Virus record (IMG/VR): IMGVR_UViG_2609459769_000019
Direction: 5' to 3' (one strand)
Source: a virus
Lineage: Duplodnaviria; Heunggongvirae; Uroviricota; Caudoviricetes
Length of the DNA: 12,920 nt
Below, in pieces: positions 1-12,920 of this stretch (the stretch's first letter is position 1; each line of letters starts with the position of its first letter). The position numbers were made by a program, and so were the translations under genes. The notes beneath the pieces are model-generated. The model saw only the letters and a list, made by a program, of their open reading frames with translations. It was not told where the DNA came from and did not search any database.

Positions 1-546
1 CGTTTCCCGTAAACCGACGTTATCGATAAAAGCCCCTTTATCCGGAATGTCTGCGCCGTTCTGCTCCCTGCGCAGGTAACGGTTATCACCTTCGCTTTTG
101 CTGTAAACATCCAGATTATTACGGGCGGTTCCCTTATTCTCCAGGTCGGCGAGATTCTGATCCTTCGCCAGGGCATTAACGTCAGCGGGACCAAGACTGT
201 TTTTTGTGGCAAGCGTCCCCAGACCAAGATAACCACGGGCCAGACGCTGGGCCTCCGCACCGGCATCAGCAATTTCTTTCAGGTTATTTTTCCGGGAAAA
301 AGCATTCGCAGCGATAATGGCTTTAATGGACAGCGTAAGCTGGTTTAACTGCGCCTTATCCGGCTGAATACTGGCTTCAGCCAGAATATTCAGCAGTTCG
401 GCCTGGAGAATATTCAGCCAGTCCTGACCAATCCAGCTGATACCTTTTTGTCCGTCACCTTCAGTAAACCAGGTGGTGGTATTACTCTGCGCCGGTGCCA
501 GCGCAGGCATATTCGCCACGCCGGAATTATTATCAACATGAAACAT
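1..546 (-). CDS. Tail fibre protein, N-terminal part (partial; ORF runs off the window at position 1)
   Basis: ATG at 546-544 overlapping the upstream stop (TAATG); 182 codons open to the window edge, which is why it is absent from the ORF track; translation MFHVDNNSGVANMPALAPAQ...REQNGADIPDKGAFIDNVGLRET ends in an NGADIxDKxAF motif that I recognise from P2/Mu/lambdoid-type tail fibres. Confidence 0.55.
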   Translation of the reverse strand, partial: MFHVDNNSGVANMPALAPAQSNTTTWFTEGDGQKGISWIGQDWLNILQAELLNILAEASIQPDKAQLNQLTLSIKAIIAANAFSRKNNLKEIADAGAEAQRLARGYLGLGTLATKNSLGPADVNALAKDQNLADLENKGTARNNLDVYSKSEGDNRYLRREQNGADIPDKGAFIDNVGLRET

Positions 547-875
547 TAAATAGTCTCCTCTTCATGGCTGTTTGCATACACGTAAATAAACGTCTGCCAT
601 GCAGGCTTATAACGGTTCAGAATACATTCCAGCGCACCGCCTTCATAAATACGCAGCGGCGTGAGAATATCATCCAGCACATTCATATTCCGGTAGCCGG
701 TTTCACTGTTAATCGTGACAATACTGACCCACTGTGAATCCGGTGATGGCTGAATATCTATTTCATAACCAAACTCTGCCGCAAACCGGATATAAAATTC
801 ACGGTTAAGAGAGGGTTTCATCCGGTATTTATTCCCGGCATAACGCTGACGCTCCTGAATGGTTGCGCCGGTCAT
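546..875 (-). CDS. C-terminal fragment of a Mu gp48 / DUF2313-like tail (baseplate) protein, translatable from an internal ATG (109 aa)
   Basis: ATG at 875 overlaps the stop of the preceding ORF (ATGA); segments FYIRFAAEFGYEIDI and LECILNRYKPAWQTFIYVY resemble the conserved C-terminal half of YmfQ/gp48-like proteins as I remember them; homology-like sequence (YLGLPECD) continues upstream of the ATG in the same frame until a stop at 915-917. Confidence 0.4.
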   Translation of the reverse strand: MTGATIQERQRYAGNKYRMKPSLNREFYIRFAAEFGYEIDIQPSPDSQWVSIVTINSETGYRNMNVLDDILTPLRIYEGGALECILNRYKPAWQTFIYVYANSHEEETI

Positions 876-1159
876 ATCACATTCCGGTAACCCCAGATAA
901 TGGCAACGGTGCCTTCAAAGGTTTTGTTCACGATGGCGTAGCCATAGGCTTTCATCTTCTCGATGACGCGGGAGCCGATCCACTCACGGAACTGCGGGAA
1001 CTGCCCCAGCCAGCCGTAGGTGTTGGATTTCGACGTGGACGGTACGGTCATCGCAATTTTCTGGTACTGAGACGGAGCCATGGACATCCCGGCCTGAAAA
1101 TCAGAACGGTAGCCCGTCATCAGGGCGGTGATCATCGCCGGTGTGATCGGGGTAGGCAT
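872..1159 (-). pseudogene. T: Truncated major head subunit (Mu T-like), N-terminal 95 codons only
   Basis: ATG at 1159 overlapping the stop of the I-like gene (TAATG) with upstream AAGAGGAAA; N-terminus ...SNTYGWLGQFPQFREWIGSRV...NKTFEGTV matches the Mu-type major head protein N-terminal pattern; frame stops at 874-872, whereas full-length proteins of this family are about 300 aa. Confidence 0.6.
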
Positions 1160-2283
1160 TATTGCATTTCCTCTTTCATTTTCAGGAACTCGGCTTCGGT
1201 TTTACCCAGCAGATGGGCGGCGGCGATATCTTCAGCCGACAGCGCAGCGGTGGCGGTCTTTTTATCCGGCACGGTTACGGTGTCGGTCTGAAGAGTGGTC
1301 AGAGCCGCAACCGGCTGGCGGGCGTCAAGCTGTGCAGAAAGTGCCGCAACACCAATCTGTTGTCCGAGTCCTTCCATGTATCCGCGTTCGCTTTTGAAAA
1401 TGCGTCCTTCGGACTCGGCCTTATCCAGCAACTGCTCCAGCGTGGTGCTGCCGTGTTGTGCCGACAACGCGACATATTCGGTACGCAGGGCGTTATACGT
1501 CTCAACGGGCACGTATTTCGTCAGATCAATAGTGCCGCCAGTTGGTGTGCCTTTTGCGGTTTCCAGCTCTGCCGACAGGCTGGCAACCTGCGTTTTCAGG
1601 GTGTCGTGCGCATCCGCACGGGTTTTGATCCCGGTAAGGGCAGACAGCGCCGCCGTGCCCAGTTCCGGTGTAAATTCGTCACCGTCGGCCACGGTCAGAC
1701 CGAGCGCCGTCAGCAACTGGCGTAATTGCTCATTCATGGAGGTGTCCTTTAAAGGAGGGTTTAAGGCGTTATAAAGGTCATCCGCCGACAGTGCGGCGAC
1801 AGGATTCATGCCAGTCAGACCGGGGTCACCGGTAATAGCCAGCATCCGAAGCTCAACAGGTTCACCGGTGATTTCGTCATAACCAATCACCGGGGAAAAC
1901 CAGGGAAATTCGTTATTGCGCAGGTGTTCAATGGCCGGAGGGTTCCAGTCCGGACGCACTTCAAAACCCCGCTCTTCACTGAAGCGGAAGTTTTCCGGTG
2001 AGGCCATGACAAAACCGGCAGCCGGTGCCGGATGCCCCTTAATCAGGGTCTGGTGGTTGTAGTCAATTTTTACCGGCTGATTGAGCGCCACAACCCGGGA
2101 TACCATGCGCTCAACGGCCGCATGGTTAATCAGCCAGCCTTCCGCCGGTTTTTCCGGGCGACCGTCACGGGCCTTTACCCGACCGGCTGGCATGATCTGA
2201 CACCAGTCACCGTCCCCGTCTGCGGACAGGCTGATGGCATTCAGAATGGCATAAGCAAGTTTGGGCGTGTTTTTCGTCTTCAT
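1159..2283 (-). CDS. I: Head maturation protease / scaffold (Mu I-like), 374 aa
   Basis: ATG at 2283; size and position (after G, before T) as in Mu; Ala/Leu-rich, coiled-coil-like C-terminal half consistent with an embedded scaffold domain. Confidence 0.75.
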   Translation of the reverse strand: MKTKNTPKLAYAILNAISLSADGDGDWCQIMPAGRVKARDGRPEKPAEGWLINHAAVERMVSRVVALNQPVKIDYNHQTLIKGHPAPAAGFVMASPENFRFSEERGFEVRPDWNPPAIEHLRNNEFPWFSPVIGYDEITGEPVELRMLAITGDPGLTGMNPVAALSADDLYNALNPPLKDTSMNEQLRQLLTALGLTVADGDEFTPELGTAALSALTGIKTRADAHDTLKTQVASLSAELETAKGTPTGGTIDLTKYVPVETYNALRTEYVALSAQHGSTTLEQLLDKAESEGRIFKSERGYMEGLGQQIGVAALSAQLDARQPVAALTTLQTDTVTVPDKKTATAALSAEDIAAAHLLGKTEAEFLKMKEEMQ

Positions 2284-2460
2284 TCCGGCAGCATAAGCCG
2301 GTGTTTTTCGGGGCCGGTTTTGCGGGACTTCAGAAAGTGCTGACAGGGGAAAAATGAGAAAGGCGCTTCACGCAGATTTTAAAGCCCGTTAAATACAGGT
2401 TAGAAAATCACGACACGCGCCTGAAGAGGGTAAGGCAATGCGTTTGTATACCTTAAACCA
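2284..2460 (-). promoter_or_regulatory. G-I intergenic region: candidate late promoter for I; positional equivalent of the Mu central strong gyrase site
   Basis: One of only three sizeable non-coding gaps in the late region (177 bp); contains C-runs flanked by A/T runs (e.g. TTTTTCCCC on the coding strand); promoter role inferred from position. Confidence 0.3.
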
Positions 2461-2934
2461 TTACGGCGTTTCTGTGGCCTTTTTAAAGCGTTTTCTGATT
2501 TCGTCCATGATCTCCTGTTCTGCCACCTGATCAAAGCCCATATACGGACGTGCGCCAATGGCCGCCGGTCCCGGTGGCATACCAGGCAGGCCACCCCACT
2601 GATGAATGGCCGCATAAGGTTCATTTGATCCAATCAGCGCCCAGGTATCGCCATAATCCGTGGTCAGGCGGCGGGCCAGATCGCCGTTCAGTGTCAGGAT
2701 TTTGCCGGGCGTGTATCCCTTACGGGTACGCCACTTGCGGTAAGGATCTGACCAGTCATGCCAGCGTTCGCCGTCCGGCTCTTTTTCCTGTTCAAACGCC
2801 ATTTCTGACGATGACAGAAGACTCTCCGCCACACTGCGGGCCAGGTCTTTTCCGCCGCCCACAAACTGAAGCCGGGCAAACACCCGCTGGAGACGCGTAA
2901 CGTCAACAACGACAGCGGCATCAATGGATGACAT
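2461..2934 (-). CDS. G: Virion morphogenesis protein (Mu G-like), 157 aa
   Basis: ATG at 2934 with GGAGG 5 nt upstream; size and position match Mu G. Confidence 0.7.
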   Translation of the reverse strand: MSSIDAAVVVDVTRLQRVFARLQFVGGGKDLARSVAESLLSSSEMAFEQEKEPDGERWHDWSDPYRKWRTRKGYTPGKILTLNGDLARRLTTDYGDTWALIGSNEPYAAIHQWGGLPGMPPGPAAIGARPYMGFDQVAEQEIMDEIRKRFKKATETP

Positions 2935-2974
2935 ATTGCCTCCGCATAAAGGATGAATATAAAATAAACAGGCG

Positions 2975-3054
2975 GTCAGTGTACGCTTAACTGGTAAAGT
3001 CGGTGCCTGCCTCCGGGTGGATCATGTATGCGGGTTCGACCCCCGCCACTGACC
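2975..3054 (+). other. tRNA-like structural element (7-bp acceptor-like stem plus canonical T-arm) in the F-G intergenic region; not a complete tRNA
   Basis: GTCAGTG (2975-2981) pairs perfectly with CACTGAC (3047-3053); internal 5-bp stem GCGGG/CCCGC (3030-3034 / 3042-3046) closes a 7-nt loop TTCGACC (T-loop-like); I could not fold a convincing anticodon arm by hand and no CCA is encoded. Confidence 0.25.
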
Positions 3055-3055
3055 G

Positions 3056-4387
3056 TTAATCAATTTGTCCTTCCAGCACCTCAAGCATTCCGCCCCGGAT
3101 ATCCGATTTCAGCTTATCCATATTGATAACCCGGTAAGCATTCACAATCACATCCAGTTTGTCGGGCTGACGTTTCAGACTGTACGGTGCATTAACGGCA
3201 ATCTGCACACTGCCATCCTGATTTTCCACGATATACATCAGATTGTTGTGCCGTTTGTCCCACAGTACCGCTTTTGGCCTTGCCAGCATTGCCGGTAAGC
3301 GCCCGAAGTCCTCCGGCGTCAGAGCGATGCCGTCATTCTGATGTTTCACACTGTCCGCATGGAGCACATTTTTACCGCTCATCGCCAGCAGGCGGGCCGG
3401 TGGCGTTCCCGTCCGGCTTTCCACTGCCTGCGCAATGCTTTCAGTCATAAAGCCCAGCGTGCGGATATCGTTACCACCTCGCCGGGTCTGCATGATGTTT
3501 TTTGCCCAGATGCGGAACGCCAGCTGCCGCTCCGGGCTGTTGTTCATCTCCTGAACCACCATTTCCCGTAACGCCGGGCTTTTCACCTCGATCAGTTTGC
3601 GGATCAGCGCCTGGTCTGTGCCGAACGCTGCCGAGCCGGGGTTATATGACCAGCCCACATCCGGTGTCATGGTTCTGGTGCCATCTGAATATGTGGTCAC
3701 CGGCATTTCTCTGACTTCTCCGGTCTGTTTATCCACGCCAGCCTCAACATTGCGGGTGGAGAGATGATCCTCACCGGATGAAACGGATAACCCCATTGCA
3801 TCCAGACGGGCCTGAGACAATGGCCGCACACGGCAGCGGCAGTTCCAGCCATTGGGCGGGTAGTGTGTTTTCCAGAACGGATCGTCATAGCGGAATACCA
3901 GACCGTTAAGGGCGGAATGCGACGGGCGGGTACGGCTGTCCATGACCGCCACATACTGCCAGAACGGATGCGTGTCCGTGTTGTTCATCATCTGCGTGTA
4001 ACGCCCGGCATTGTAAGCCACACGGGTGTTCACGTTGTAAATCAGCGCCAGACGACGGGGACTGCCCAGCTGCACTTCTTCCGCGTTACCGTCGCTGTCC
4101 ACCACAATCTGCTTTCCCCACCATCCCAGCTTTTGCAGGCGTGGCGTCAGCGTGCGGATAAATGCTTTCTGTGAAATTCCCTCATCAATGGCCCGCTGCA
4201 CTTCGGCCTGTAACGTGGTCACCACATCCAGGCGTGCCGCTTTTGCTGCCGTGAATGAGCGGGCATGAACATCCGCGGCTGTTTCGAACCAGTTCCAGCT
4301 GATATGCGCCCCTTTGACACGGAAGTATGCTACCGCCTCTTTTGAGGGAAGCGTGGCGGCATAACCTAAATCAATCCCCTGTGTCAT
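3056..4387 (-). CDS. F: Head morphogenesis protein (Mu F-like, gp30 family), 443 aa
   Basis: ATG at 4387 overlapping the portal gene end by 17 nt; conserved WNCRCRV-type motif; position between portal and G as in Mu. Confidence 0.75.
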   Translation of the reverse strand: MTQGIDLGYAATLPSKEAVAYFRVKGAHISWNWFETAADVHARSFTAAKAARLDVVTTLQAEVQRAIDEGISQKAFIRTLTPRLQKLGWWGKQIVVDSDGNAEEVQLGSPRRLALIYNVNTRVAYNAGRYTQMMNNTDTHPFWQYVAVMDSRTRPSHSALNGLVFRYDDPFWKTHYPPNGWNCRCRVRPLSQARLDAMGLSVSSGEDHLSTRNVEAGVDKQTGEVREMPVTTYSDGTRTMTPDVGWSYNPGSAAFGTDQALIRKLIEVKSPALREMVVQEMNNSPERQLAFRIWAKNIMQTRRGGNDIRTLGFMTESIAQAVESRTGTPPARLLAMSGKNVLHADSVKHQNDGIALTPEDFGRLPAMLARPKAVLWDKRHNNLMYIVENQDGSVQIAVNAPYSLKRQPDKLDVIVNAYRVINMDKLKSDIRGGMLEVLEGQID

Positions 4388-5960
4388 CCAGCATCCCCTT
4401 CATTTCCGCAGCAAACATGGCATCACTGAGCAGCGTCATCAGGCGGGAATCATCCATTTCACGATAAAGGGCAGGCAGGTCTGCCAGCGCATCCGCCAGC
4501 CCCCGCGTTCTGATGGCATCAATGACCGGCTCCAGTACCGGGTCGATGGCCTCCTGTAAGCGGCGGGCAGGCACCGCGTCCCCCATATCATCCAGTTCAT
4601 CACGCGGCGTGCTTTTCGCTTCCGGCAGTCTGGCTGACAGCGCCGTCTGCTCTGTTTTTTCCTGTTTTTCCGGTGGTGTTTCCCTGTCGGTCTGAGCCGG
4701 TTCATTGCCACTCTGACGGACACGGAATATGGCTTCACCGGGCGTGGGCTGCGGAATACCGGTCTGCTCCCGTATCCAGGGATCAGAAATATCCATCCCC
4801 GTACTGAGCTGCATCACCGCACTGGTGATTTTGGTGATATCACCTGGTTCTTTGGTCTGGAAGCAGATACGTGGCAGACGGCGGATATCAATAGTGTGCG
4901 TGGTGTTCAGGGCGTACAGCGGATACACCAGATCGCGGTTCAGGGTTGCAGCCAGCTGCCGTAAATCAGAATCCCTGATTTCCCGGCGCACCTCGTTATG
5001 CACCTCACCCAGCGAGCGCGCGCCTTTGTCTCCGGCTTCCGTGGTCAGCGTGCCGCCGAGTATTGCTTTGGAGATGGAACGCTCCCCCCACGAAATCATG
5101 GTTTCAAATGGATCGGCCTGACCGTTTGCTGCCGCCTGAAATTCCAGCGACATCCCGGCCGGGATGATCCCGCCTGTACGTCGCCCGATATCCATCACCG
5201 CCCGCATCAGGGCGCTTTTCTGCTCCGGTGTTGCCCCGGACGGGTATTTCCCGACCTTCATCGGCAGTCCGTACACCTCCAGAAATTCGGCCAGATCGCG
5301 CACGGAATAGTTTTTGAAAATGAACGGCCAGATAAGCGTCCTGACAAGCCCCGTTGCGCCACCGTAACCGGTCCGTGAACGTGACTGATGCACTATCCAG
5401 CCAAAAGGCTGAAACGCCACCCCGGCATGGCTGCCGTCACGCAGCCGCAGTTCGCTCAAATCATCCGGGTTAAGGCAGAAATGCCCGCTGTCACGCCAGC
5501 GGATGGCGCGGATGATGTGCATTTTACCGAGCATCCCGTGCTCAATTTCCATGCAGGAATAGCCCTTCAGGATGGCATCCGTGGCGTCAAACAGCATGGC
5601 ATCAAACCAGTCTGCGGAATGCAGATATTCGTCGAGCATTTCCGCGTCCTTTTTCTCATTCGCGCTGGCGTTCGGTGGCGGCTCAATACTCCATGGCACC
5701 CCCTGAATGGCAAGACGTCGCTTGCCCAGCTCCGCAAAAAGGTGGGTGTCCTTTTCTTCAATATCAGCGGCCAGATCGGACTGGGCAATCAGATCGCCAC
5801 GTTCAGCCCCGCGAAGGCACTGCGCCGCCCGGTTCGGGGTGATACCCGAAGCCGGATGTTCAATATAACGGCTGGCAATCTGCGGAATATCCAGCGCGGC
5901 ACTCTGCATCTCCGGGTCAAAGGAGAAAGGTTTTCCGTCAGTATCAATGATGCGTCCCAC
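4371..5960 (-). CDS. Portal protein (Mu gp29-like), 529 aa
   Basis: GTG start at 5960 overlapping the terminase stop (TAGTG); large ORF immediately after the large terminase; size as expected for a Mu-type portal. Confidence 0.75.
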   Translation of the reverse strand: MGRIIDTDGKPFSFDPEMQSAALDIPQIASRYIEHPASGITPNRAAQCLRGAERGDLIAQSDLAADIEEKDTHLFAELGKRRLAIQGVPWSIEPPPNASANEKKDAEMLDEYLHSADWFDAMLFDATDAILKGYSCMEIEHGMLGKMHIIRAIRWRDSGHFCLNPDDLSELRLRDGSHAGVAFQPFGWIVHQSRSRTGYGGATGLVRTLIWPFIFKNYSVRDLAEFLEVYGLPMKVGKYPSGATPEQKSALMRAVMDIGRRTGGIIPAGMSLEFQAAANGQADPFETMISWGERSISKAILGGTLTTEAGDKGARSLGEVHNEVRREIRDSDLRQLAATLNRDLVYPLYALNTTHTIDIRRLPRICFQTKEPGDITKITSAVMQLSTGMDISDPWIREQTGIPQPTPGEAIFRVRQSGNEPAQTDRETPPEKQEKTEQTALSARLPEAKSTPRDELDDMGDAVPARRLQEAIDPVLEPVIDAIRTRGLADALADLPALYREMDDSRLMTLLSDAMFAAEMKGMLDDTGD

Positions 5961-7627
5961 TACCAGCCCCCCCGATCAAATTCATGATATGCCTCATCGT
6001 CATCACGATAACCGCCCTCCATTGCCCGCGACCGCTCCGGTAGCGCCTGACAGGCTGATTCATCCAGGATGAAGCCCTCCATGTATGACGCCCGGTTTGC
6101 CATACAGAGCGCCACGGCAAAATCACCATGGCGGCGGGCGTTCGCAGCCGTTGCGTTCTGGTCCTTCGTGCGCCCCTTGTCGATTTGCGGGATACCATTC
6201 ACTACCTTCACATGGCGCAAATCATCAAGCGTGGTCTGATGGCGGGCGACGAGGATATTCTGATCTTCAAACTCGGCTTTCAGTTTTGGCATCCACTCGC
6301 CGTACCACTTCGGCGACAACATCACGCAGTCGATGATATCCGGGCCAAAGGCCAGCAGTGCGGCCTCTGCCAGATAGCCGCCGTTACCGGTGGCGTCGAA
6401 CGCCGCACCGACCAGCGCCGGAACGCGGGTCAGGATGTACATCATCACCTGTTCCTGCTGGGCATACGGCAGGTTGCGCAGCTCCACGCGAAACACCTCG
6501 CGCTTTGCCAGGGATTCGGTGATTTCCAGCAGCACAAAGCAGGACAGGTCACCGGTGCGGGCAAAGTCTTCCCCGAAGCTGAAGCGGGAACGGGGATTTA
6601 ATTTCTCTAAAAGCGGTTTTAAATGTTCTTCACACCAGGTTAAAACTTCCGATTCACGCAGCCATGCGGCACGGCTGATGAAGTTGTCCGGGGCTTCAAA
6701 CGTCAGAATCGGGATGTCGCGGATCATCGCCATTTCAATAAGCGCGTGGGGGATATAGGCACCGCCGGATTTTTTCGGGATACAGCCGTATTCCTCGTCG
6801 GCATCCTCACGGGTCGGGGCGTTTTTGTAGAGATCATCACGCCATTTCTGCTCGCTTTCCGGTGACCATTCCTGATCGGTGACGTAACAGATACGACGGT
6901 ACAGCCCGTCCGCAATGGCATCATCCAGGGTTATGCGGTGGACGCTGTAATCCTTGCGCCCCTCGCGGGCTTCCTGAATGTACTGATTAAACAGATTATC
7001 GACGCCGTTATGCGTGGAGATAATACGCACGCGCGCGCCCCACATAGTGAGCGCCATTGCCGCCTTGAGAAGCTCATCCAGTGACTCGTGGAACGCGGCT
7101 TCATCAATCACCACATCCCCCTGAAGGCCGCGCAGGTTTGACGGACGGGAAGACAATGCCTGAATTTTGAATCCACTGTTCGGAAAGCGGATCATGTAGG
7201 TCAAAATTTCTTCTTTTTTATCCCGATCCCAGAATGTCTGCTCATACACATCAGCATCTGCCAGCTGGTTAAAGGCACGGGAGAACAGCGCGCAGGCAGA
7301 AATATATTCCAGCGCCATCTCCTGCTTTGATCCCACATAAAACACATTGCGGCCACCACGACGCTTCGGTTTTGCAGCAGTAATGACGTTACGCCCGGCT
7401 TCCGCCCAGGTAAGACCGGTGCGGCGGGATTTCTCCGCGATGCAGACCTGACTTTCATCTGCAAACCAGCGGGCCTGATAATCCAGAAACACCGGCATAT
7501 CACCGGGCAAATCAAGGCTGTCCGGCACATCCACGCCCAGCAGGGCTTTTTCACCTGACAGATCAATTTTGCGGGGAGGCGTCATTTGCATCAGTGAAGG
7601 CGACGTTTCTCTGGCTTTGTTCATCAT
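5960..7627 (-). CDS. Terminase large subunit (Mu gp28-like), 555 aa
   Basis: ATGATG at 7627-7622 overlapping the upstream stop (ATGA); N-terminal ATPase-like region (Walker-B-like VVIDEAAF) and C-terminal nuclease-like region; followed by the portal. Confidence 0.8.
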   Translation of the reverse strand: MMNKARETSPSLMQMTPPRKIDLSGEKALLGVDVPDSLDLPGDMPVFLDYQARWFADESQVCIAEKSRRTGLTWAEAGRNVITAAKPKRRGGRNVFYVGSKQEMALEYISACALFSRAFNQLADADVYEQTFWDRDKKEEILTYMIRFPNSGFKIQALSSRPSNLRGLQGDVVIDEAAFHESLDELLKAAMALTMWGARVRIISTHNGVDNLFNQYIQEAREGRKDYSVHRITLDDAIADGLYRRICYVTDQEWSPESEQKWRDDLYKNAPTREDADEEYGCIPKKSGGAYIPHALIEMAMIRDIPILTFEAPDNFISRAAWLRESEVLTWCEEHLKPLLEKLNPRSRFSFGEDFARTGDLSCFVLLEITESLAKREVFRVELRNLPYAQQEQVMMYILTRVPALVGAAFDATGNGGYLAEAALLAFGPDIIDCVMLSPKWYGEWMPKLKAEFEDQNILVARHQTTLDDLRHVKVVNGIPQIDKGRTKDQNATAANARRHGDFAVALCMANRASYMEGFILDESACQALPERSRAMEGGYRDDDEAYHEFDRGGW

Positions 7628-7872
7628 GCTTTACCTGTCAGAATGCTTTTGATTCGGGACTCAAGCTCTTCAGTCATCACGTCCACGCCGCTCAACTCAT
7701 CAGTGGCAGCCTCTGCCAGCAGCGAATGCAGTTGTTCCAGGGATATTTCCCCGGCAATGCTGAGTTCAGTCAACTCACGACATACCTTTATGGTTTCAGG
7801 AGGTAACTGTGTTGCAAGACTGAATGCTTTCTGATGGGCACTGCTCATCAGTGAGCGGTTATCTGTTGCCAT
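7624..7872 (-). CDS. Small protein (82 aa), paralogous to the C-terminus of the gp27-like protein
   Basis: ATG at 7872 preceded by AGGAGGTGA with 5-nt spacer; C-terminus ATDELSGVDVMTEELESRIKSILTGKA parallels gp27 C-terminus VTDELRGVDGMSEQIEFRIRQMLLGKA; nucleotide similarity visible between about 7627-7720 and 7886-7985. Confidence 0.5.
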   Translation of the reverse strand: MATDNRSLMSSAHQKAFSLATQLPPETIKVCRELTELSIAGEISLEQLHSLLAEAATDELSGVDVMTEELESRIKSILTGKA

Positions 7873-7882
7873 GATTCACCTC

Positions 7883-8464
7883 CTACGCCTTACCCAGCAG
7901 CATCTGCCTGATACGGAATTCGATCTGCTCGCTCATGCCATCCACGCCGCGCAACTCATCGGTGACCGCATTCGCCATCTCTTCAGCAAATGCGGCCCGG
8001 ATTTCTTTTTCACGCTTAATGCTGCGCTCGGCGGCACTTTCTGCACGCTGTGCCGACAGGAGGATGTCCTTAATAAGGCGCATATCCACATCGCTGTCGC
8101 TGTTCAGGGATTCGGTGGCGGCACGCAGACGGCGGTACATCAGGGCACGGGACATCTCCAGAATCAGTGCCGTGGTTTCACCGGTCGGCTTATCCCCCAG
8201 TTCGGCCATCATGGCTTTTGTCTGCTCGCGTAAATCACGCAGATTACGGGCAATCAGCTCATTACGGGAGGCTTCCCGGCTGATGGCCGCCGGTGAGAGC
8301 TGCTGCTCTTCCGGCAGACCTGCTTCACGGATCAGACGGTTGATTTCCTCGCGGATCTGGACCTGCGTCAGACGTTTTTCACGCAGCATTTCCAGCAGCG
8401 GCTTACGGATGCTGTCGGGGAGCAAATCCACCTTGCGTACACGGCCACGCGTCGGCTTATCCAT
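7883..8464 (-). CDS. Mu gp27-like protein (DUF3486), putative terminase small subunit / packaging DNA-recognition protein, 193 aa
   Basis: ATG at 8464 with AAGGGGG upstream; charged, coiled-coil-rich protein directly upstream of the large terminase as in Mu. Confidence 0.65.
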   Translation of the reverse strand: MDKPTRGRVRKVDLLPDSIRKPLLEMLREKRLTQVQIREEINRLIREAGLPEEQQLSPAAISREASRNELIARNLRDLREQTKAMMAELGDKPTGETTALILEMSRALMYRRLRAATESLNSDSDVDMRLIKDILLSAQRAESAAERSIKREKEIRAAFAEEMANAVTDELRGVDGMSEQIEFRIRQMLLGKA

Positions 8465-8466
8465 CG

Positions 8467-8757
8467 TTACCCCCTTGCGCGTGGTTTCTTCACACCCGGA
8501 ACAGTGGCACGACCTTCCGCCACATCCTGACCCCGGCCGGTCAGTTCAGCGATGAAATAACCGTTAACAAGCGTGCGCTTACGCACCAGTCCCTGCTCAG
8601 CAAGCCAGGCAATGTGGGTGTGAACGGTGTCGCGGGACACGCGGTGGCCGTAATCATCCAGGCAGTCCTGAAGCACGGATTCGCCCAGTTCGCCGTTGTA
8701 ATCCGCCAGCGACCGCAGAATGACAAGACGCTGATCTTCAGTAATGAAATCACTCAT
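8467..8757 (-). CDS. Small protein at the Mu gp26 position, possible winged-helix-like fold, 96 aa
   Basis: ATG at 8757 with AAGGAA upstream; overlaps the preceding gene by 8 nt; function not assignable from sequence. Confidence 0.5.
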   Translation of the reverse strand: MSDFITEDQRLVILRSLADYNGELGESVLQDCLDDYGHRVSRDTVHTHIAWLAEQGLVRKRTLVNGYFIAELTGRGQDVAEGRATVPGVKKPRARG

Positions 8758-9061
8758 TGTGTTTTTTCCTTACAGCCTGCTCCAGCAGCAGTTCGTTCTG
8801 ATGGGAGACGGATTTCAGGGTGGCATTGGTGGCCTTAAGCTCACCGCGCAGGGTGGTGATTTCGATATTGAGTCTGTTCACCTCCTGCTGCGTGGGCAGG
8901 CCGGAAATCCGGCTCTCCACCCGCTCAACCCGGTCGGAGAGTTTTTCAAAGGCCTCGCGGGGGACAAAGGTTTTGCGCATCAGCGCCATGAAGATCCCCC
9001 CGGCTGTGGCCGTTGCCGACAGGATCGGCACGACATAATCTTTAACGATGCTGACCCACAT
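8750..9061 (-). CDS. Mu gp25-like membrane protein (candidate releasin of the lysis cassette), 103 aa
   Basis: ATG at 9061 with GGAGG upstream; N-terminal hydrophobic segment VVPILSATATAGGIFMALM followed by a charged coiled-coil-like domain; lies between the lysis genes and the packaging genes. Confidence 0.45.
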   Translation of the reverse strand: MWVSIVKDYVVPILSATATAGGIFMALMRKTFVPREAFEKLSDRVERVESRISGLPTQQEVNRLNIEITTLRGELKATNATLKSVSHQNELLLEQAVRKKHNE

Positions 9062-9269
9062 GACCGGCCTCCATGATGTTCTGGCAGTTCACACAACGGA
9101 TGGCATCCGGCACGGCAACCAGACGGGCAGCCGGAATGTCACCCCCGCAGTCCGCGCATACACGCCTGCCCGGTGTCTCCGCCACCCGGCGCTTACGTGT
9201 CAGCCGGTCACAAAGGGCGCGTTCTGTTGCACGCTCCATGACTGCCTGAGCACAATCTGAATCATCCAT
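9042..9269 (-). CDS. TraR/DksA-family C4 zinc-finger protein, 75 aa
   Basis: ATG at 9269 preceded by AAGGAAAAAGG; CxxC...CxxC motif (CADCGG...CVNCQ); the longer track ORF (to 9335) lacks an RBS and overlaps the o-spanin. Confidence 0.65.
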   Translation of the reverse strand: MDDSDCAQAVMERATERALCDRLTRKRRVAETPGRRVCADCGGDIPAARLVAVPDAIRCVNCQNIMEAGHVGQHR

Positions 9270-9279
9270 ACCTTTTTCC

Positions 9280-9651
9280 TTACTTCGTCTTTCCTGCCGG
9301 AACAGCAGTCGTTCCGGCCATATCAGTAAATTCATGCTGTCGCTGTGTCTCCAGACGGCGGATGCTGGCCTTGTCCACGTTGCAGTTTTTAATCACCGCC
9401 AGCAGTTGCAGGTTGTAAGTGACCGATGCACCAAACGTGAACGGCTGCGGCGCGGGAGGGACCAGGCAGTCAGCCAGCCATTCAGCGGGGATCGGCACCG
9501 GCGGCACAGGGACGAATTTCACAGACGGCCCGCCGCACCCGGTCAGCCACATCATCAGGCACAGGCACAGCGGCAGCAGGCACCGTTGCCAGTGACCGGC
9601 GGACAATGCTCTGCTGTTCCTCGCTGTGCTGCATGTTCTGCTGTTTTTCAT
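9280..9651 (-). CDS. o-spanin (outer-membrane lipoprotein), overlapping the i-spanin in another frame
   Basis: ATG at 9651 with AAGGCGG upstream; signal peptide ending in lipobox LTGC; proline-rich mature region (PVPPVPIP, PPAPQP); start choice uncertain. Confidence 0.5.
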   Translation of the reverse strand: MKNSRTCSTARNSRALSAGHWQRCLLPLCLCLMMWLTGCGGPSVKFVPVPPVPIPAEWLADCLVPPAPQPFTFGASVTYNLQLLAVIKNCNVDKASIRRLETQRQHEFTDMAGTTAVPAGKTK

Positions 9652-9910
9652 TCGTGGCCGCCTTGCTGATTTGTGAAATGAGTTGCAGGGTGCGTTGCTG
9701 GTTTGCCAGCACCAGACGGGCTTCGTCCCGTTCACGCACAAGCACATGATTATTGTCCTCAAGGCGCTGCGTCTTCTGGTGCATTCCCCATACCACGGCA
9801 GCCAGCACGCTCATCACCCCCAGCGCCGCCATGCTCGCCCCGGCAATCAGGGCCGGTAAGGGATTGTTCACCACAGCCACAGTGCCCCCCGCAGCGCCAC
9901 AACGGCACAT
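9482..9910 (-). CDS. i-spanin (inner-membrane spanin subunit)
   Basis: N-terminal TM segment LPALIAGASMAALGVMSVLAAVVW followed by charged/Gln-rich coiled-coil-like periplasmic domain; directly downstream of the endolysin; ATG at 9910 chosen, but the track ORF starts at a TTG at 10003 inside lys, so the start is uncertain. Confidence 0.5.
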   Translation of the reverse strand: MCRCGAAGGTVAVVNNPLPALIAGASMAALGVMSVLAAVVWGMHQKTQRLEDNNHVLVRERDEARLVLANQQRTLQLISQISKAATNEKQQNMQHSEEQQSIVRRSLATVPAAAVPVPDDVADRVRRAVCEIRPCAAGADPR

Positions 9911-9944
9911 AACAGCGCAATCATGAGCGGTCGACAGAGCCGGT

Positions 9945-10445
9945 TCAGACTTTCGGCAAGTCGTAGCGACATAACCATTCATCCGCCGAACGGCGGGCCT
10001 CAAGGCCGGGGAGTTTCACCCCCTTTGAATAAATCCAGCGGATATACTGCTTACAGGACGCGGGCATCTGTCCGGCATTGATAAGGCGCAGAAGCGTGGA
10101 GTTGCGGAAGTTCGTTTCACCGGCCCAGAAGATCCACGAAGCCAGCGCCACCGTCTGACCACGGGTAAGTGGCACCTGAACACGCCGGTCAATGGCCGCA
10201 AAGGCCCATTTCATGTCCTTTTCCAGCAGTTCCAGACATTCTTCATCGGTTTTTGTCATACCCGGTTTCACATCCGGGCCGGTATGGCCGTGGCAGATGG
10301 TGGGGGTGCCGGTGGGGTCGAGATACGTGGTGTTTTCTTTCCCTTCCCAGTAGCCGGTGTAGTGCGTGGCAATAGTGAACGTCCCGGCTCCGGCCAGAAC
10401 AAGGGCAATCAGCTTTTTACGCAGTGGCGCGGGGAGTTTTGGCAT
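9945..10445 (-). CDS. lys: Endolysin, T4-lysozyme-like (GH24) with N-terminal signal-anchor-release (SAR) segment, 166 aa
   Basis: ATG at 10445; N-terminal LIALVLAGAGTFTIATHY hydrophobic stretch after a basic N-terminus; catalytic E-x8-D-x5-T triad (EGKENTTYLDPTGTPT) followed by GHTG motif. Confidence 0.85.
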   Translation of the reverse strand: MPKLPAPLRKKLIALVLAGAGTFTIATHYTGYWEGKENTTYLDPTGTPTICHGHTGPDVKPGMTKTDEECLELLEKDMKWAFAAIDRRVQVPLTRGQTVALASWIFWAGETNFRNSTLLRLINAGQMPASCKQYIRWIYSKGVKLPGLEARRSADEWLCRYDLPKV

Positions 10446-10516
10446 TGTTACGCTGTCTCATGGTGTTCTCTGAGCCAGCGTAACCGTGGAAAAAAGGGGG
10501 CAGGATTTGCGGAATA
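10446..10516 (-). promoter_or_regulatory. Candidate activator-dependent late promoter upstream of the endolysin (Plys equivalent)
   Basis: 71-bp gap between the activator gene and lys; coding strand contains CCTGCCCCCTTTTTTCC; assignment by position only. Confidence 0.3.
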
Positions 10517-10939
10517 TCAGAAAAGCCGGGGCTGCGTGCGCTCCTGATGCAGGCGACGCTGGTTGCGGATAACGGAGTAAATCTGCGTCTCTGACATCTG
10601 GTAATGGCGGCGCAGGGTTTCAATTTTTTCACCCTGGCTCCAGCGGGAAAAAATCTCATTATTGCGCAGTTCGGTGAAAAGGGATTCACCGACCGGGAGA
10701 TAATAACCACGCCCGCCCATGTACCCGGCCTGTGCGGCCGCAACCTTACGGGCAAGCATTCCCGCCTGAGCAGATTCAATCCCCTGACGGTGCAGTTCAG
10801 CACTGATCACATCAACCAGGTCACGCAGCGTGCCGGGCCAGTTCTTTTTCAGCTCATCATCAGGAATATCATCCAGACGGTCAATCAGCGCGTGCAGCTG
10901 TTCGCTGTCACCAAACATGCTCATCTGTGTTTCAGCCAT
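10517..10939 (-). CDS. Mor/C-family transcriptional activator (140 aa; by size and position more likely the C-type late activator)
   Basis: ATG at 10939 with GGAGG 6 nt upstream; acidic N-terminus and basic C-terminal HTH-like region typical of Mor/C proteins; sits immediately upstream of lys. Confidence 0.75.
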   Translation of the reverse strand: MAETQMSMFGDSEQLHALIDRLDDIPDDELKKNWPGTLRDLVDVISAELHRQGIESAQAGMLARKVAAAQAGYMGGRGYYLPVGESLFTELRNNEIFSRWSQGEKIETLRRHYQMSETQIYSVIRNQRRLHQERTQPRLF

Positions 10940-10971
10940 ACCCGCCTCCGGTCATCATTACACAGGGCAAG

Positions 10972-11005
10972 TTTAAAATAAAAATCCCGCGCTGTGGCGG
11001 GATTT
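10972..11005 (-). terminator. Rho-independent terminator after the truncated transposase gene (possibly doubling as an activator-binding dyad)
   Basis: Minus-strand AAATCCCGC-CACAGC-GCGGGATTT hairpin (9-bp GC-rich stem, 6-nt loop; plus 10982-11005) followed by TTATTTT; starts 5 nt after the stop codon at 11012-11010. Confidence 0.55.
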
Positions 11006-11009
11006 GGGG

Positions 11010-11918
11010 TTAAAAAGGGGAGGATTCTTCATACAGCCTGCAAACGCGCTCATAACTCATCACTGTACGCGCTGACACCCGGCCTTTTTGTTTCACCACT
11101 TCCGGCAGTTTCTTCATTGCGCGGCGAATGGTGTCATAAGACGGCATGATATCGAGCATATAAGGCTCATCAGCGTGCCGGTACTGCCATTCAGCGACAA
11201 AATCCTCGTAAGCCTCGGTCATTGGTCGGCCGTTTGACTGGCGATACTGCGCCAGAAATTCGGGCAGCCAGTTAATATCTTCGGCTTTTATTTCCTGGCG
11301 CTTACCAGGTGCCAGCAAAAGCAGGCGTTCAGCGGCGTTCTGCGCCTTGTTAAAGGCTGCAATCCAGCGTTTCAGCGTGATTTCACTCAACGCACGGCTG
11401 TTTCCCTTTTTGGCGTTCGCCGTCTCAACCATTGCCACAATGCGCTCGTCCAGTTGCGAACGTGCCAGGTTGTCAACGATAAACCGGATAGCCTTCGCAC
11501 AGCTGAAACCAGGTTGTTGCGCGACTTTCAGAACTTCGCTGACGATCGCGATTCGTGCATCAGCCACCTGGCGCTGGTTTTCAGTCAGAGCATTAAGGCG
11601 TTCGACCATCAGTTGTGGTGATCCGCGATATGCCTCCACCGCATCAACCACGGCAGGCGAGCGTCTGGCCTTTGTCACCACTGGAGCCGGTGATTCATCG
11701 ACTTTTTGAGTCATCAGTTGCAGGGCGTAGCGTTCACGTAATGCCTGCTGCGTCACTTCAGGTAAACAGTCGATGCTGTATTCAGTTGCTTTAGAGCCTG
11801 AGCGACGACGGGAACAACAGCTTTTCCCTTGTACGTAACGTTGTAATGCCTGGCGAATACCTTTTGTTGTAGCAGGCATTCCGGGCGCGCCAATCAGTTC
11901 TTTTGCAATGACATACAT
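11010..11918 (-). CDS. Truncated Mu transposase A homologue: N-terminal DNA-binding domain only (302 aa), no DDE catalytic core
   Basis: ATG at 11918, 1 nt after the ner stop; N-terminus APGMPATTKGIRQALQRY...GSKATEYSIDCLPEVTQQALRER resembles the winged-helix enhancer-binding domain of MuA/Mu repressor as I remember it; ORF stops at about 300 aa against about 660 aa for full-length MuA; terminator follows directly. Confidence 0.55.
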   Translation of the reverse strand: MYVIAKELIGAPGMPATTKGIRQALQRYVQGKSCCSRRRSGSKATEYSIDCLPEVTQQALRERYALQLMTQKVDESPAPVVTKARRSPAVVDAVEAYRGSPQLMVERLNALTENQRQVADARIAIVSEVLKVAQQPGFSCAKAIRFIVDNLARSQLDERIVAMVETANAKKGNSRALSEITLKRWIAAFNKAQNAAERLLLLAPGKRQEIKAEDINWLPEFLAQYRQSNGRPMTEAYEDFVAEWQYRHADEPYMLDIMPSYDTIRRAMKKLPEVVKQKGRVSARTVMSYERVCRLYEESSPF

Positions 11919-11919
11919 A

Positions 11920-12168
11920 TCATGACGCCTTTCTCATATAGCTCTTAACCTGGTATCGACTGGGCCAGATTTCTTCAGGCGATACCCCAAGAGCATCAGC
12001 AATTATTTGCTGATACGGTCGGCAAGGAGTACGTAATACGCTTTTCAGCGAATCCCTGCTGTAACCAGCCTTTAAAGATAAAGAGCGCAGTGATAAGCCA
12101 GCCATGTGTAAGCGCGCCTTGATGATTTCAGGCGGCCAATCGTGATCTGAAACTTCTCTTCTACTCAT
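11920..12168 (-). CDS. ner: Ner-like DNA-binding regulator (82 aa)
   Basis: ATG at 12168 with AGAGGAAG upstream; ...LSLRSLSLKAGYSRDSLKSVL...QQIIADALGVSPEEIWPSRY matches the Mu Ner family signature (IIA.AL...P...WPSRY); divergent from the repressor gene. Confidence 0.85.
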   Translation of the reverse strand: MSRREVSDHDWPPEIIKARLHMAGLSLRSLSLKAGYSRDSLKSVLRTPCRPYQQIIADALGVSPEEIWPSRYQVKSYMRKAS

Positions 12169-12335
12169 ACTTCCTCTATTCTAAAAAGTTACCCGCGCGG
12201 ATATTCGTGCGGATATCTGTACGGGTAAATAATAGAACAAACAAAAGAACCAAATCAAGGTATTTTGTTCTTTTTATTCTTTGCGGTGTTTTTGTTATTA
12301 ATATCAATAAGATAAATAAAAAGGAACCTGAGAGC
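12169..12335. promoter_or_regulatory. Divergent immunity control region between ner and the repressor gene (candidate operators and promoters)
   Basis: AT-rich 167-bp spacer; tandem 12-bp direct repeat CGYGCGGATATY at 12194-12205 and 12206-12217, flanked by inverted TTACCCG (12189-12195) / CGGGTAA (12222-12228); second inverted repeat AGAACAAA (12234-12241) / TTTGTTCT (12264-12271); TAGAAT -10-like hexamer on the minus strand. Confidence 0.5.
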
Positions 12336-12920
12336 ATGAACATGAAAAACAGTTCTTTTCTCGACGAAGGAAAAGAACCAGTGATCGAACGGATTTTTCG
12401 TCTTGCAGAGCGTTACAAATCGAGAAGTGAGGCGGCTAGAGCATGGGGAATAAACGTTCAGACATTGCAGAACTACTACAAAAGGAGAAACAATCAGCCG
12501 CCACCACAACCAAGAAAGCACCATCTCCAGAACATTGCAGAAAGAGAACATGTATCTATGGAGTGGCTAGTCAATGGTTATGGTGATGAGCCAAGCATGA
12601 AAAAAGAACCAATTGAACAAACAAAAAGAACAAAAAAACAAAGAATTGATGATAGTGATTCCATCATCATGAGGGCGTGGGACTCGCTAACTTCATCTGA
12701 ACAAGAGATTTTGTCCAACTTATTGATCAGAAAAGGGGCCGAACTACTAACCGTTTTGCTTGATACAGATATTCAAAAACTGCACTCATTGAGCGGAGTC
12801 AAAAGAGCACTAGCATTGAGTCTACAAGAGTTACCCGATGATACTGTAAGAGAGATTTATGAAGAATGTGAAGCTAAGGTTAATCATTTAAATGTAACCC
12901 AGAAAAAGGCTGGTGCGTAA
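12336..12920 (+). CDS. Prophage repressor (194 aa): HTH N-terminal domain joined to a Mu c-like C-terminal domain
   Basis: ATG at 12336 (second ATG at 12342) preceded by AAGGAA; the track's longer ORF starts at a GTG at 12207 inside the operator region; N-terminus has a classical HTH (RSEAARAWGINVQTLQNY); C-terminal segment LLIRKGAELLTVLLDTDIQKLHSLSGVKRALALSLQELPDDTVREI resembles the Mu repressor C-terminal region from memory; gene is distinctly AT-rich. Confidence 0.65.
   Translation: MNMKNSSFLDEGKEPVIERIFRLAERYKSRSEAARAWGINVQTLQNYYKRRNNQPPPQPRKHHLQNIAEREHVSMEWLVNGYGDEPSMKKEPIEQTKRTKKQRIDDSDSIIMRAWDSLTSSEQEILSNLLIRKGAELLTVLLDTDIQKLHSLSGVKRALALSLQELPDDTVREIYEECEAKVNHLNVTQKKAGA

Follow-up and report, generated by a model that had tools for sequence, protein, structure and literature searches.

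A T/ymfQ deletion junction in a defective Sp18-type Mu-like prophage of Escherichia coli and the reuse of its ymfQ breakpoint

How does an open reading frame (ORF) that resembles the beginning of the Mu major head gene T come to lie directly against one that resembles the end of the tail gene gp48? This question is raised by positions 546-1159 of the virus record IMGVR_UViG_2609459769_000019, a 12,920-nt stretch of DNA that was analysed as a whole and is called the window below. A preliminary description, made from the sequence alone, had proposed that T is fused out of frame to the 3' part of a gp48-like gene, that everything Mu places between the two is missing, and that the element reflects either ordinary decay or selection for a retained subset of genes. 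We consider it very probable that 546-1159 was left behind when a transposable, Mu-like prophage of the Sp18 type in E. coli lost 11,672 bp in a single internal deletion, through a microhomology-mediated illegitimate event in the course of ordinary decay.

The minus strand of the window carries the Sp18-type prophage. As references we used the intact prophage of strain FORC_069 (L001), which also serves as the coordinate system for breakpoints throughout the family, and a closer relative in strain AF39 (L017). As shown in Table 1, the window aligned to L001 as three collinear blocks with 91-99.9% DNA identity to intact members; the breakpoints in L017 were identical, with blocks at 99.5%, 99.1% and 97% identity in blastn. 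The genes follow the order repressor (12336-12920, plus strand), ner, a 302-residue N-terminal piece of transposase A, mor, lysozyme and further lysis genes, gp27, terminase, portal, F, G and protease/scaffold gene I, and then the T-like ORF, the gp48-like ORF (ymfQ) and the start of the tail-fibre gene, which runs from 546 down to 1. Sp18-type prophages, such as Sp18 of O157:H7 Sakai and the FORC_069 and AF39 copies, share this order from the repressor through A, mor, the lysis genes, terminase, portal, F, G, I and T to ymfQ, the tail fibre and the G segment, and the likeness in order and identity holds for every retained block. Unlike the intact members, the window copy lacks 7.8 kb from the A C-terminus to gemA and 11.7 kb from T to ymfQ, and about half of the ~39-kb genome is retained as seen so far. 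Sp18 itself is 38.76 kb long, and its FRIK804 counterpart 39.18 kb (PMC7430833).

The breakpoint, which had been expected near position 900, was placed at 898-900 by blastn against the two intact prophages. In L001 the T flank ends at 20603 and the ymfQ flank begins at 32276, so that the segment 20604-32275 is absent from the window. The only sequence common to both flanking blocks is the TTA at 898-900. Through this triplet T codon 87 would have been joined to ymfQ codon 69, a join with the signature of RecA-independent illegitimate recombination, presumably by end joining or template switching. In T the TTA is read in codon positions 2-3-1, in ymfQ in positions 3-1-2. The first quarter of T and the last two-thirds of ymfQ are therefore fused in different frames, and an out-of-frame fusion had indeed been proposed. 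The flanks match, at 100% and 99.9% identity, genes that lie 11.7 kb apart in the relatives, indicating that the arrangement is neither a chance resemblance nor a frameshift. Compared with the intact relative, 13 whole genes have been lost together with 228 codons of T and 68 codons of ymfQ; the absent genes are the HI1506-related, gp36-like, gp37-like, DUF2635, sheath, tube, tail assembly, tape measure, DNA-circularisation, baseplate P-like, V, gp46 and J/gp47 genes. The preliminary description had listed Mu R among the missing genes and gp48 among the retained ones; we take these to be the same Mu gene, and the list is corrected in this respect.

The T-like ORF (T') does stop after 95 codons. 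Its residues 1-87 are identical (87/87) to residues 1-87 of the 315-residue gpT of the intact relative, and its final eight residues, IWGYRNVI, are ymfQ DNA read in the wrong frame. Against PF10124 (Mu-like_gpT) it scored 107.9 bits, well above the curated cut-off of 20.1, with only profile positions 2-78 of 289 covered, so that what remains is an N-terminal stub and not the whole profile expected of a complete capsid protein. On the other side of the junction, the ymfQ-frame translation of 546-902 (HYLGLPECDMTG...HEEETI) runs from Y70 to the natural stop, and its residues 2-118 match YmfQ 70-186 (117/118 identical). The 109-residue ORF within it scored 30 bits at positions 66-147 of 150 in PF10076 (Phage_Mu_Gp48), under the 37.4-bit gathering threshold over the full domain, compared with 80.1 bits at positions 2-147 for the intact relative. 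Both ORFs are thus fragments of the gpT and gp48/YmfQ (DUF2313) families, as opposed to complete, unrelated small proteins; unlike true members, they have only positions 2-78/289 and 66-147/150 left, and judging from this coverage neither should be able to act as a functional gpT or gp48. Most likely, the fusion products are junk, namely an 87-residue capsid stub with an 8-residue missense tail and, at best, a 109-residue piece of the C-terminus of the baseplate protein, translated from an internal start. The GenBank entries for a 95-residue 'gpT family protein' and a 109-residue 'hypothetical protein' are accordingly best read as pieces of one deletion scar and not as genes. The T' stop and the ATG of the 109-residue ORF overlap at 872-875 (ATGA), as do the ymfQ stop and the ATG of the tail-fibre gene at 546-544 (TAATG), where the start of that gene had been predicted.

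An assembly collapse, or a sequencing frameshift, with the tail genes really present at the locus would be another way to account for such a fusion, and the contig ends lend it some colour: both the window and contig L003 run only slightly beyond the gix-like site at the inverted repeat of the G segment, and other short-read contigs stop inside ymfQ. However, the exact 95-residue product is encoded on at least 8 contigs of independent assemblies, among them the NCBI drafts GCA_000704525.1 and GCA_009824415.1 and the Logan assemblies SRR1186796 and SRR1191663, and the deleted prophage is likewise present in GCA_000704545.1 and GCA_009824585.1. Across 2.3-11.2 kb the NCBI and Logan copies match the window at 100%, and the junction 30-mer was found in one IMG/VR contig (L002), which differs by 2 mismatches from window 40-12920. 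In GenBank, the hosts of the carriers are named E. coli 3-020-07_S3_C1, 2-460-02_S4_C2 and others. Since the 3 bp common to the flanks are too short for a k-mer assembler to join two loci, and since different assemblers and projects (NCBI, Logan and IMG/VR) agree on the identical junction, the deletion is real; analogous junctions, moreover, occur in finished genomes. We therefore give an artefact practically no chance, a conclusion reached through independent assemblies and without raw reads.

The junction is nevertheless rare in E. coli. A 1.2-kb query over the locus matched 238 E. coli RefSeq records, each as two separate halves, of which that up to position 603 was annotated as phage protease and gpT and that from 601 as 'YmfQ family protein', and none of the 238 records spanned both halves. 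When the whole window was searched, 278 complete E. coli genomes were matched; the central block ended at the same coordinate in 25 of the 25 listed, none of these 25 had the junction, and it was found in 0 of 5,426 complete genomes overall. The junction 30-mer was also absent from the GTDB species representatives and from the JGI metagenomes. Because none of the 5,426 complete genomes has it, the junction marks one rare clone.

The other junction of the window, at 11076-11080, removes L001 2575-10420, or 7.8 kb from the A C-terminus to gemA. In the collinear alignment to the intact prophages, the breakpoints are flush with 2-3 bp overlaps. Transposase A breaks off at about codon 281 and B is missing, so that the element falls short of transposition competence; the capsid gene is truncated and the sheath, tube, tape measure and baseplate genes are gone, as expected of a defective (cryptic) prophage. 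With both deletions, the element is unable to transpose or to build a capsid shell or a tail, the last two of which had already been concluded in the preliminary description. The retained 10.2-kb block has no gaps relative to the intact relatives, and because it is free of indels and the copies, compared over 10-13 kb, are identical except for the 2 mismatches in L002, the deletions must be young. The element is thus a recent, clonal, decaying prophage.

Defective prophages are known to decay by internal deletion, and the window copy is a textbook case. It resembles other defective ('grounded' or cryptic) prophages in the loss of morphogenesis genes, in flush junctions with microhomology of a few bases and in the stepwise accumulation of deletions that is seen in sister remnants; unlike in typical defective prophages, the endpoints here are tightly clustered at a few nucleotides and not scattered. 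Other members of the family carry many different internal deletions with overlaps of 0-15 bp, indicating that such decay is common there, roughly 10,000 assembly blocks encode the identical Ner protein, and comparable remnants in the complete genome of TOE17 were annotated by the Prokaryotic Genome Annotation Pipeline (PGAP) as pseudogene fragments. In the ypdB-inserted remnant lineage (L018, L019, L021, L022 and L050, the last of these being TOE17), gin is frameshifted into ORFs of 106 and 83 residues, and this split gin likewise points to decay that is still going on. There is no sign of a satellite, gene transfer agent or domesticated module. Taken alone, the finding is ordinary and adds another dead prophage to those known. 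Three observations weigh against so simple an account. The right arm and right end of the window copy are not in any contig, all of which stop at or before the gix-like site; the right breakpoint is non-random, with the same TA used in three other deletions, so that plain random breakage is an incomplete picture; and translational coupling through the ATGA and TAATG overlaps could conceivably still express the ymfQ' fragment.

Whether the retained genes form a selected set was the alternative that the preliminary description had left beside decay. According to this alternative, the repressor, ner, the N-terminal DNA-binding part of A, mor, the lysis genes, terminase, portal, F, G, the protease and the tail fibre constitute a domesticated module, for example a helper-dependent satellite or a superinfection-exclusion element, and indeed the retained ORFs are all intact, no gaps relative to the relatives are found over 10.2 kb, and the regulatory, lysis and packaging genes outlast both deletions. 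However, the copies are identical or nearly so and belong to one clone, so that intact ORFs only show that the deletions are young, too young for selection to have left a trace; the same subset would be expected to recur in diverged lineages under purifying selection, and it was found in a single clone, with the junction absent from the 5,426 complete genomes, the GTDB species representatives and the JGI metagenomes. Other remnants of the family, furthermore, retain different subsets of genes. Specifically, the genome that contains L002 (IMG taxon 2609459799) harbors a second, different Sp18-type remnant, L080 (IMGVR_UViG_2609459799_000003), which holds ner, A, B and the early region to gemA (L001 1621-10176) fused directly to ymfQ at position 32472, and which has lost mor, the lysis genes and the head genes. 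In the two parts common to L080 and the window, the identity is only 95.9% and 98.95%. The two types of remnant are nearly complementary halves, with the T C-terminus and the tail genes in neither, and no T was found on the other IMG/VR contigs of genome 2609459799, which leaves no intact T there for a satellite to borrow. As two remnants of one cell keep nearly complementary subsets, the selected-subset idea is unsupported, and we regard it as very improbable; of the two options in the preliminary description, decay stands and selection does not. In addition, the Logan contigs L005 and L006 of the first remnant stop exactly at the L080 branch point (window 705).

The ymfQ endpoint of the deletion recurs elsewhere in the family. 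A lookup of the exact 109-residue ymfQ' product found it behind several different upstream partners, and alignment to L001 placed the right breakpoint at this first ymfQ hot spot always at 32274-32277, with left ends that differ (Table 1). The TA at window 898-899 (L001 32277-78) is common to the window deletion and to three others with different left ends, and all four left sites, ATTA, GGTA, GATA and GCTA, end in TA at the break. This lookup can pick up a right endpoint only in the ~80 nt that separate two in-frame ATGs, at 32220 and 32301, and by our own rough estimate the chance of four events within one 3-nt window is (3/80)^3, or ~5e-5. Three of the four junctions sit in prophages that have other junctions in common (8116/17444 or 24433/27755; here and below, a slash between coordinates, or one that stands outside brackets in a motif, marks the point of joining), and these three may be successive erosions in one lineage; the window junction is in a different phage variant and at a different locus. 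Loci L019, L025, L027 and L049 show all four combinations of 24433/27755 (deleted or intact) with 27869/32277 or 28681/32277, which implies either that co-resident remnants recombined within a stretch of 115 bp or that the same junctions formed more than once.

A second ymfQ hot spot lies 200 bp downstream and is intact in the window. The 46-residue ymfQ'' ORF was found after at least four, probably five, left partners, namely 2579, 5098, 10176, 24893 and ~27877, the last of which (L058) is approximate owing to an unaligned 14-nt gap (loci L051-L060, L072, L080 and L083). Positions 2573-2579 in gene A (GGGT(G/A)/ACCGG), which include the other junction of the window (2574/10421), are joined to four right partners, 10421, 22234, 23489 and 32476, in different remnants (including L018, L049 and L054). 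Endpoint 2858-2861 has two partners, endpoint 24710-24712 recurs, and 28680-28681 is used once as a left end and once as a right end. In IMG/VR, where the sample was not picked by junction type, 5 of the 32 loci with a 3' ymfQ carry a deletion that ends inside ymfQ, 4 of these 5 at the two hot spots. A fixed right end with variable left ends, possibly nested within one lineage, is formally like the adjacent deletions of transposable elements; unlike those, the fixed point has no element end, pseudo-end or insertion sequence (IS) and consists of ordinary ymfQ coding DNA without similarity to the phage ends. In the literature searched, no prior description was found of this breakpoint reuse or of the TA and CCGG signature described below.

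A site-specific break or a replication barrier in ymfQ, producing a constant DNA end to which different partners become attached, is a possible though tentative cause of the hot spots, for which a nuclease, a nick or a protein tightly bound near CCGGAAT would be candidates. It would account for the four left partners (T 20603, sheath 23755, 27869 and 28681) that all join L001 32277-78, and for the at least four, probably five, partners that join 0-11 nt upstream of the second CCGGAAT at 32472-32486; the sole other copy of TACCGGAA to the left of the G segment (5494) is a breakpoint too. However, no candidate enzyme was found, and at the hot spots there was no significant hairpin, no gix-like site, no IS among ~87 relatives' loci and no CRISPR (clustered regularly interspaced short palindromic repeats) spacer for one protospacer frame. 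Several specific causes were examined, and none found support. Gin recombination would call for 26-bp gix-like sites with a matching central dinucleotide at both breakpoints, and its action at a pseudo-gix is rejected, since the hot spot scored at most 14/26, or 6/26 when centred on the crossover, against 21-22/26 for true gix sites. DNA folding at the breakpoint gave z = -0.6 to -1.0, or +0.3, so that a hairpin or cruciform is rejected. When compared with the true L and R ends, ungapped or in gapped anchored alignment, the ymfQ hot spots were no better pseudo-transposon ends than 17-67% of random sites. Insertion and later excision of an IS is unsupported, as the only IS in ~87 relatives' loci (L002-L088) was an IS1 at L001 6239, away from the hot spots. 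For CRISPR self-targeting, a type I-E spacer against L001 32266-32297 (a 32-mer; protospacer adjacent motif AAG; one frame only) was found in none of the 5,426 complete genomes. Chi, DnaA-box, IHF and gyrase-consensus sequences and restriction sites (BstEII, BsaWI, EcoP15I and BbsI), compared by eye only, did not fit.

The sequence at the breaks was analysed for 23 distinct junctions across loci L018-L091 in L001 coordinates. TA lies in the crossover window of 14 junctions, compared with 4.5 in the null, and 0 of 5000 simulations reached 14; (T/C)A/NYSRN was found at 10 of the 23 (null 2.3, P = 2e-4). Among 35 endpoint clusters, 18 have CCGG starting at the break, that is, with the break immediately 5' of CCGG (null 4.6). 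Of 22 plus-strand copies of TACCGG, 5 were cut exactly TA/CCGG (binomial 7e-7), compared with 0 of 14 in the other orientation, a difference that was not significant (Fisher 0.13). Copies of TACCGGAA were at or beside breakpoints in 3 of 5 cases, and the other two are in or beyond the unsampled G segment. Note that junctions sharing a hot spot were counted as independent and that the motifs were noticed in the same data, so that these P values are optimistic. Taken alone, the target pentamer NYSRN gives a weak signal (P = 0.03 at the left sites, 0.6 at the right), and the window junction, TTA/TCTGG, has the TA and a pentamer that misfits NYSRN, thus only the TA half of the signature.

The CCGG or CGG and the (T/C)A features are what Mu transposase chemistry would leave, and the phage's own Mu-type transposase may be considered as the agent: the 3'-OH after an internal (T/C)A would be joined to a preferred target pentamer (NYSRN or CYSRG, with a CGG core) in the same prophage, so that the damage is self-inflicted and confined to limited sites. 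The preference of MuA for CYSRG is established (PMC7350765), and the TA and (T/C)A/NYSRN enrichments, the CCGG at the breaks with its TA/CCGG cuts, and a right phage end that finishes ...GCTATA-3' all agree with the proposal. However, the pentamer of the window junction, TCTGG, is outside NYSRN, the hot spots are unlike true phage ends in ungapped and gapped alignment, and the non-independence of junctions inflates the P values. In addition, Mu self-integration is almost never observed (85 events among 90 million reads, all in the absence of MuB; PMC7350765). In the products known from it, an internal site is linked to an end of Mu, a pattern that the junctions here do not show. The transposase idea is hence a minority hypothesis that we consider improbable. 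In more general terms, it is a doubtful but conceivable proposition that internal deletions of Sp18-type prophages are non-random and arise by sequence-directed cutting at TA, preferably at TA/CCGG, with the phage's own transposase acting on CGG-type pentamers as one candidate; the prophages would then erode along a few preset breakpoints, the ymfQ site being among the hottest. If the reuse of the same few nucleotides, with its TA and CCGG signature, does reflect an enzyme, such as a transposase or nuclease, or a barrier, it would represent a testable route by which transposable prophages are inactivated, and the breakpoints would also provide a marker set for tracing E. coli prophage lineages.

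The sequences of the phage ends bear on the same motifs. The left end is 5'-TGTAACCAGGTGAATCATTTGATACC and the right end ...GGTATCAAAAAAATCGCCGCGCTATA-3'. GATACCG is the core of a repeat, TTTGATACCG, present in two to four copies at each prophage end (L001 532, 627, 39707 and 39729) and presumably a transposase-binding site. Of seven interior copies of GATACCG, six are on the plus strand, and 3 of these six are breakpoints (5492, 24710 and 27866), all cut GATA/CCG; these breaks fall within the motif, not ~20 nt outside it as at the real ends. The left end mostly begins 5'-TGTAACCAGG... (L007-L018), and in L001 (512), L054 (944) and L056 it begins TATAACCAGG..., where position 2 has A in place of G. 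Each of the five right ends observed (5/5) finishes ...GCTATA-3' and not ...CA-3'. Flanking repeats at two loci (TTAG and ACTG) suggest a length of 4 bp, not 5 bp.

Table 1. Features of the window and of related deletions, with positions in the window and in the intact reference prophage L001
Feature	Window	Strand	L001	Description
Early block	11076-12454		1198-2574	91% identity
Central block	898-11080		10421-20603	98.5% identity, zero gaps
Late block	1-900		32276-33175	99.9% identity
Other (first) deletion junction	11076..11080	-	2574/10421	transposase A codon ~281 joined to gemA/gp16 3' end
Protease/scaffold gene I	1159..2283	-		intact, 374 residues, PF10123; directly 5' of T', stop overlaps T' start
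Truncated major head gene T'	872..1159	-		95 codons: 87 gpT, then 8 out-of-frame, TGA stop
T/ymfQ deletion junction	898..900	-		3-bp microhomology TTA (TAA on + strand), common to T side and ymfQ side
Retained 3' part of ymfQ/gp48 baseplate gene	546..900	-		codons 69-186 and stop of 186-residue YmfQ
109-residue ORF	546..875	-		starts at internal Met78 of YmfQ
Second ymfQ hot spot	690..704	-	32472-32486	...AAACCGGCTA/CCGGAAT...
Tail-fibre (S-like) gene, 5' constant part	1..546	-	32630-33175	ATG 546-544; 99.9% identical to L001
gix-like crossover site of invertible G segment	4..29	+		TTCCCGTAAACCGACGTTATCGATAA; exact copy of L001 site scoring 22/26 against Mu gix consensus
Left breakpoint in T			20603	window
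Left breakpoint in sheath gene			23755	L020, 4.7-Mb contig
Left breakpoint in DNA-circularisation gene			27869	L025; complete genomes TOE17, DLI.5a and AST46 (plus further deletion 24433/27755)
Left breakpoint in DNA-circularisation gene			28681	L027, L049

Beyond ymfQ, the tail-fibre part at 1-546 gave no Pfam match, and its counterpart in L001 is the gene upstream of the tail-fibre assembly gene. The gix-like site lies where the 144-bp inverted repeat of the G segment begins, and the window stops 3 nt past it. Contig L003 stops very near that point, and the site with its inverted repeat is probably the reason why both stop there; other contigs break earlier, within ymfQ at window 608 and 705. 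Between F and G of the intact relatives, PGAP annotates a 'tRNA-OTHER' (L001 18447-18526, equivalent to window 2975-3054), and ARAGORN detected no tRNA in the whole window, this site included. The host flank is contained in L008, where trpE, trpL, a PHP gene, yciO-like, DUF2207, rluB-like and btuR-like genes and an SDR gene precede the left end of the prophage. These names are assigned from Pfam labels and the K-12 gene order, and the prophage accordingly adjoins a gene that we take to be yciK, in the trp-region neighbourhood.

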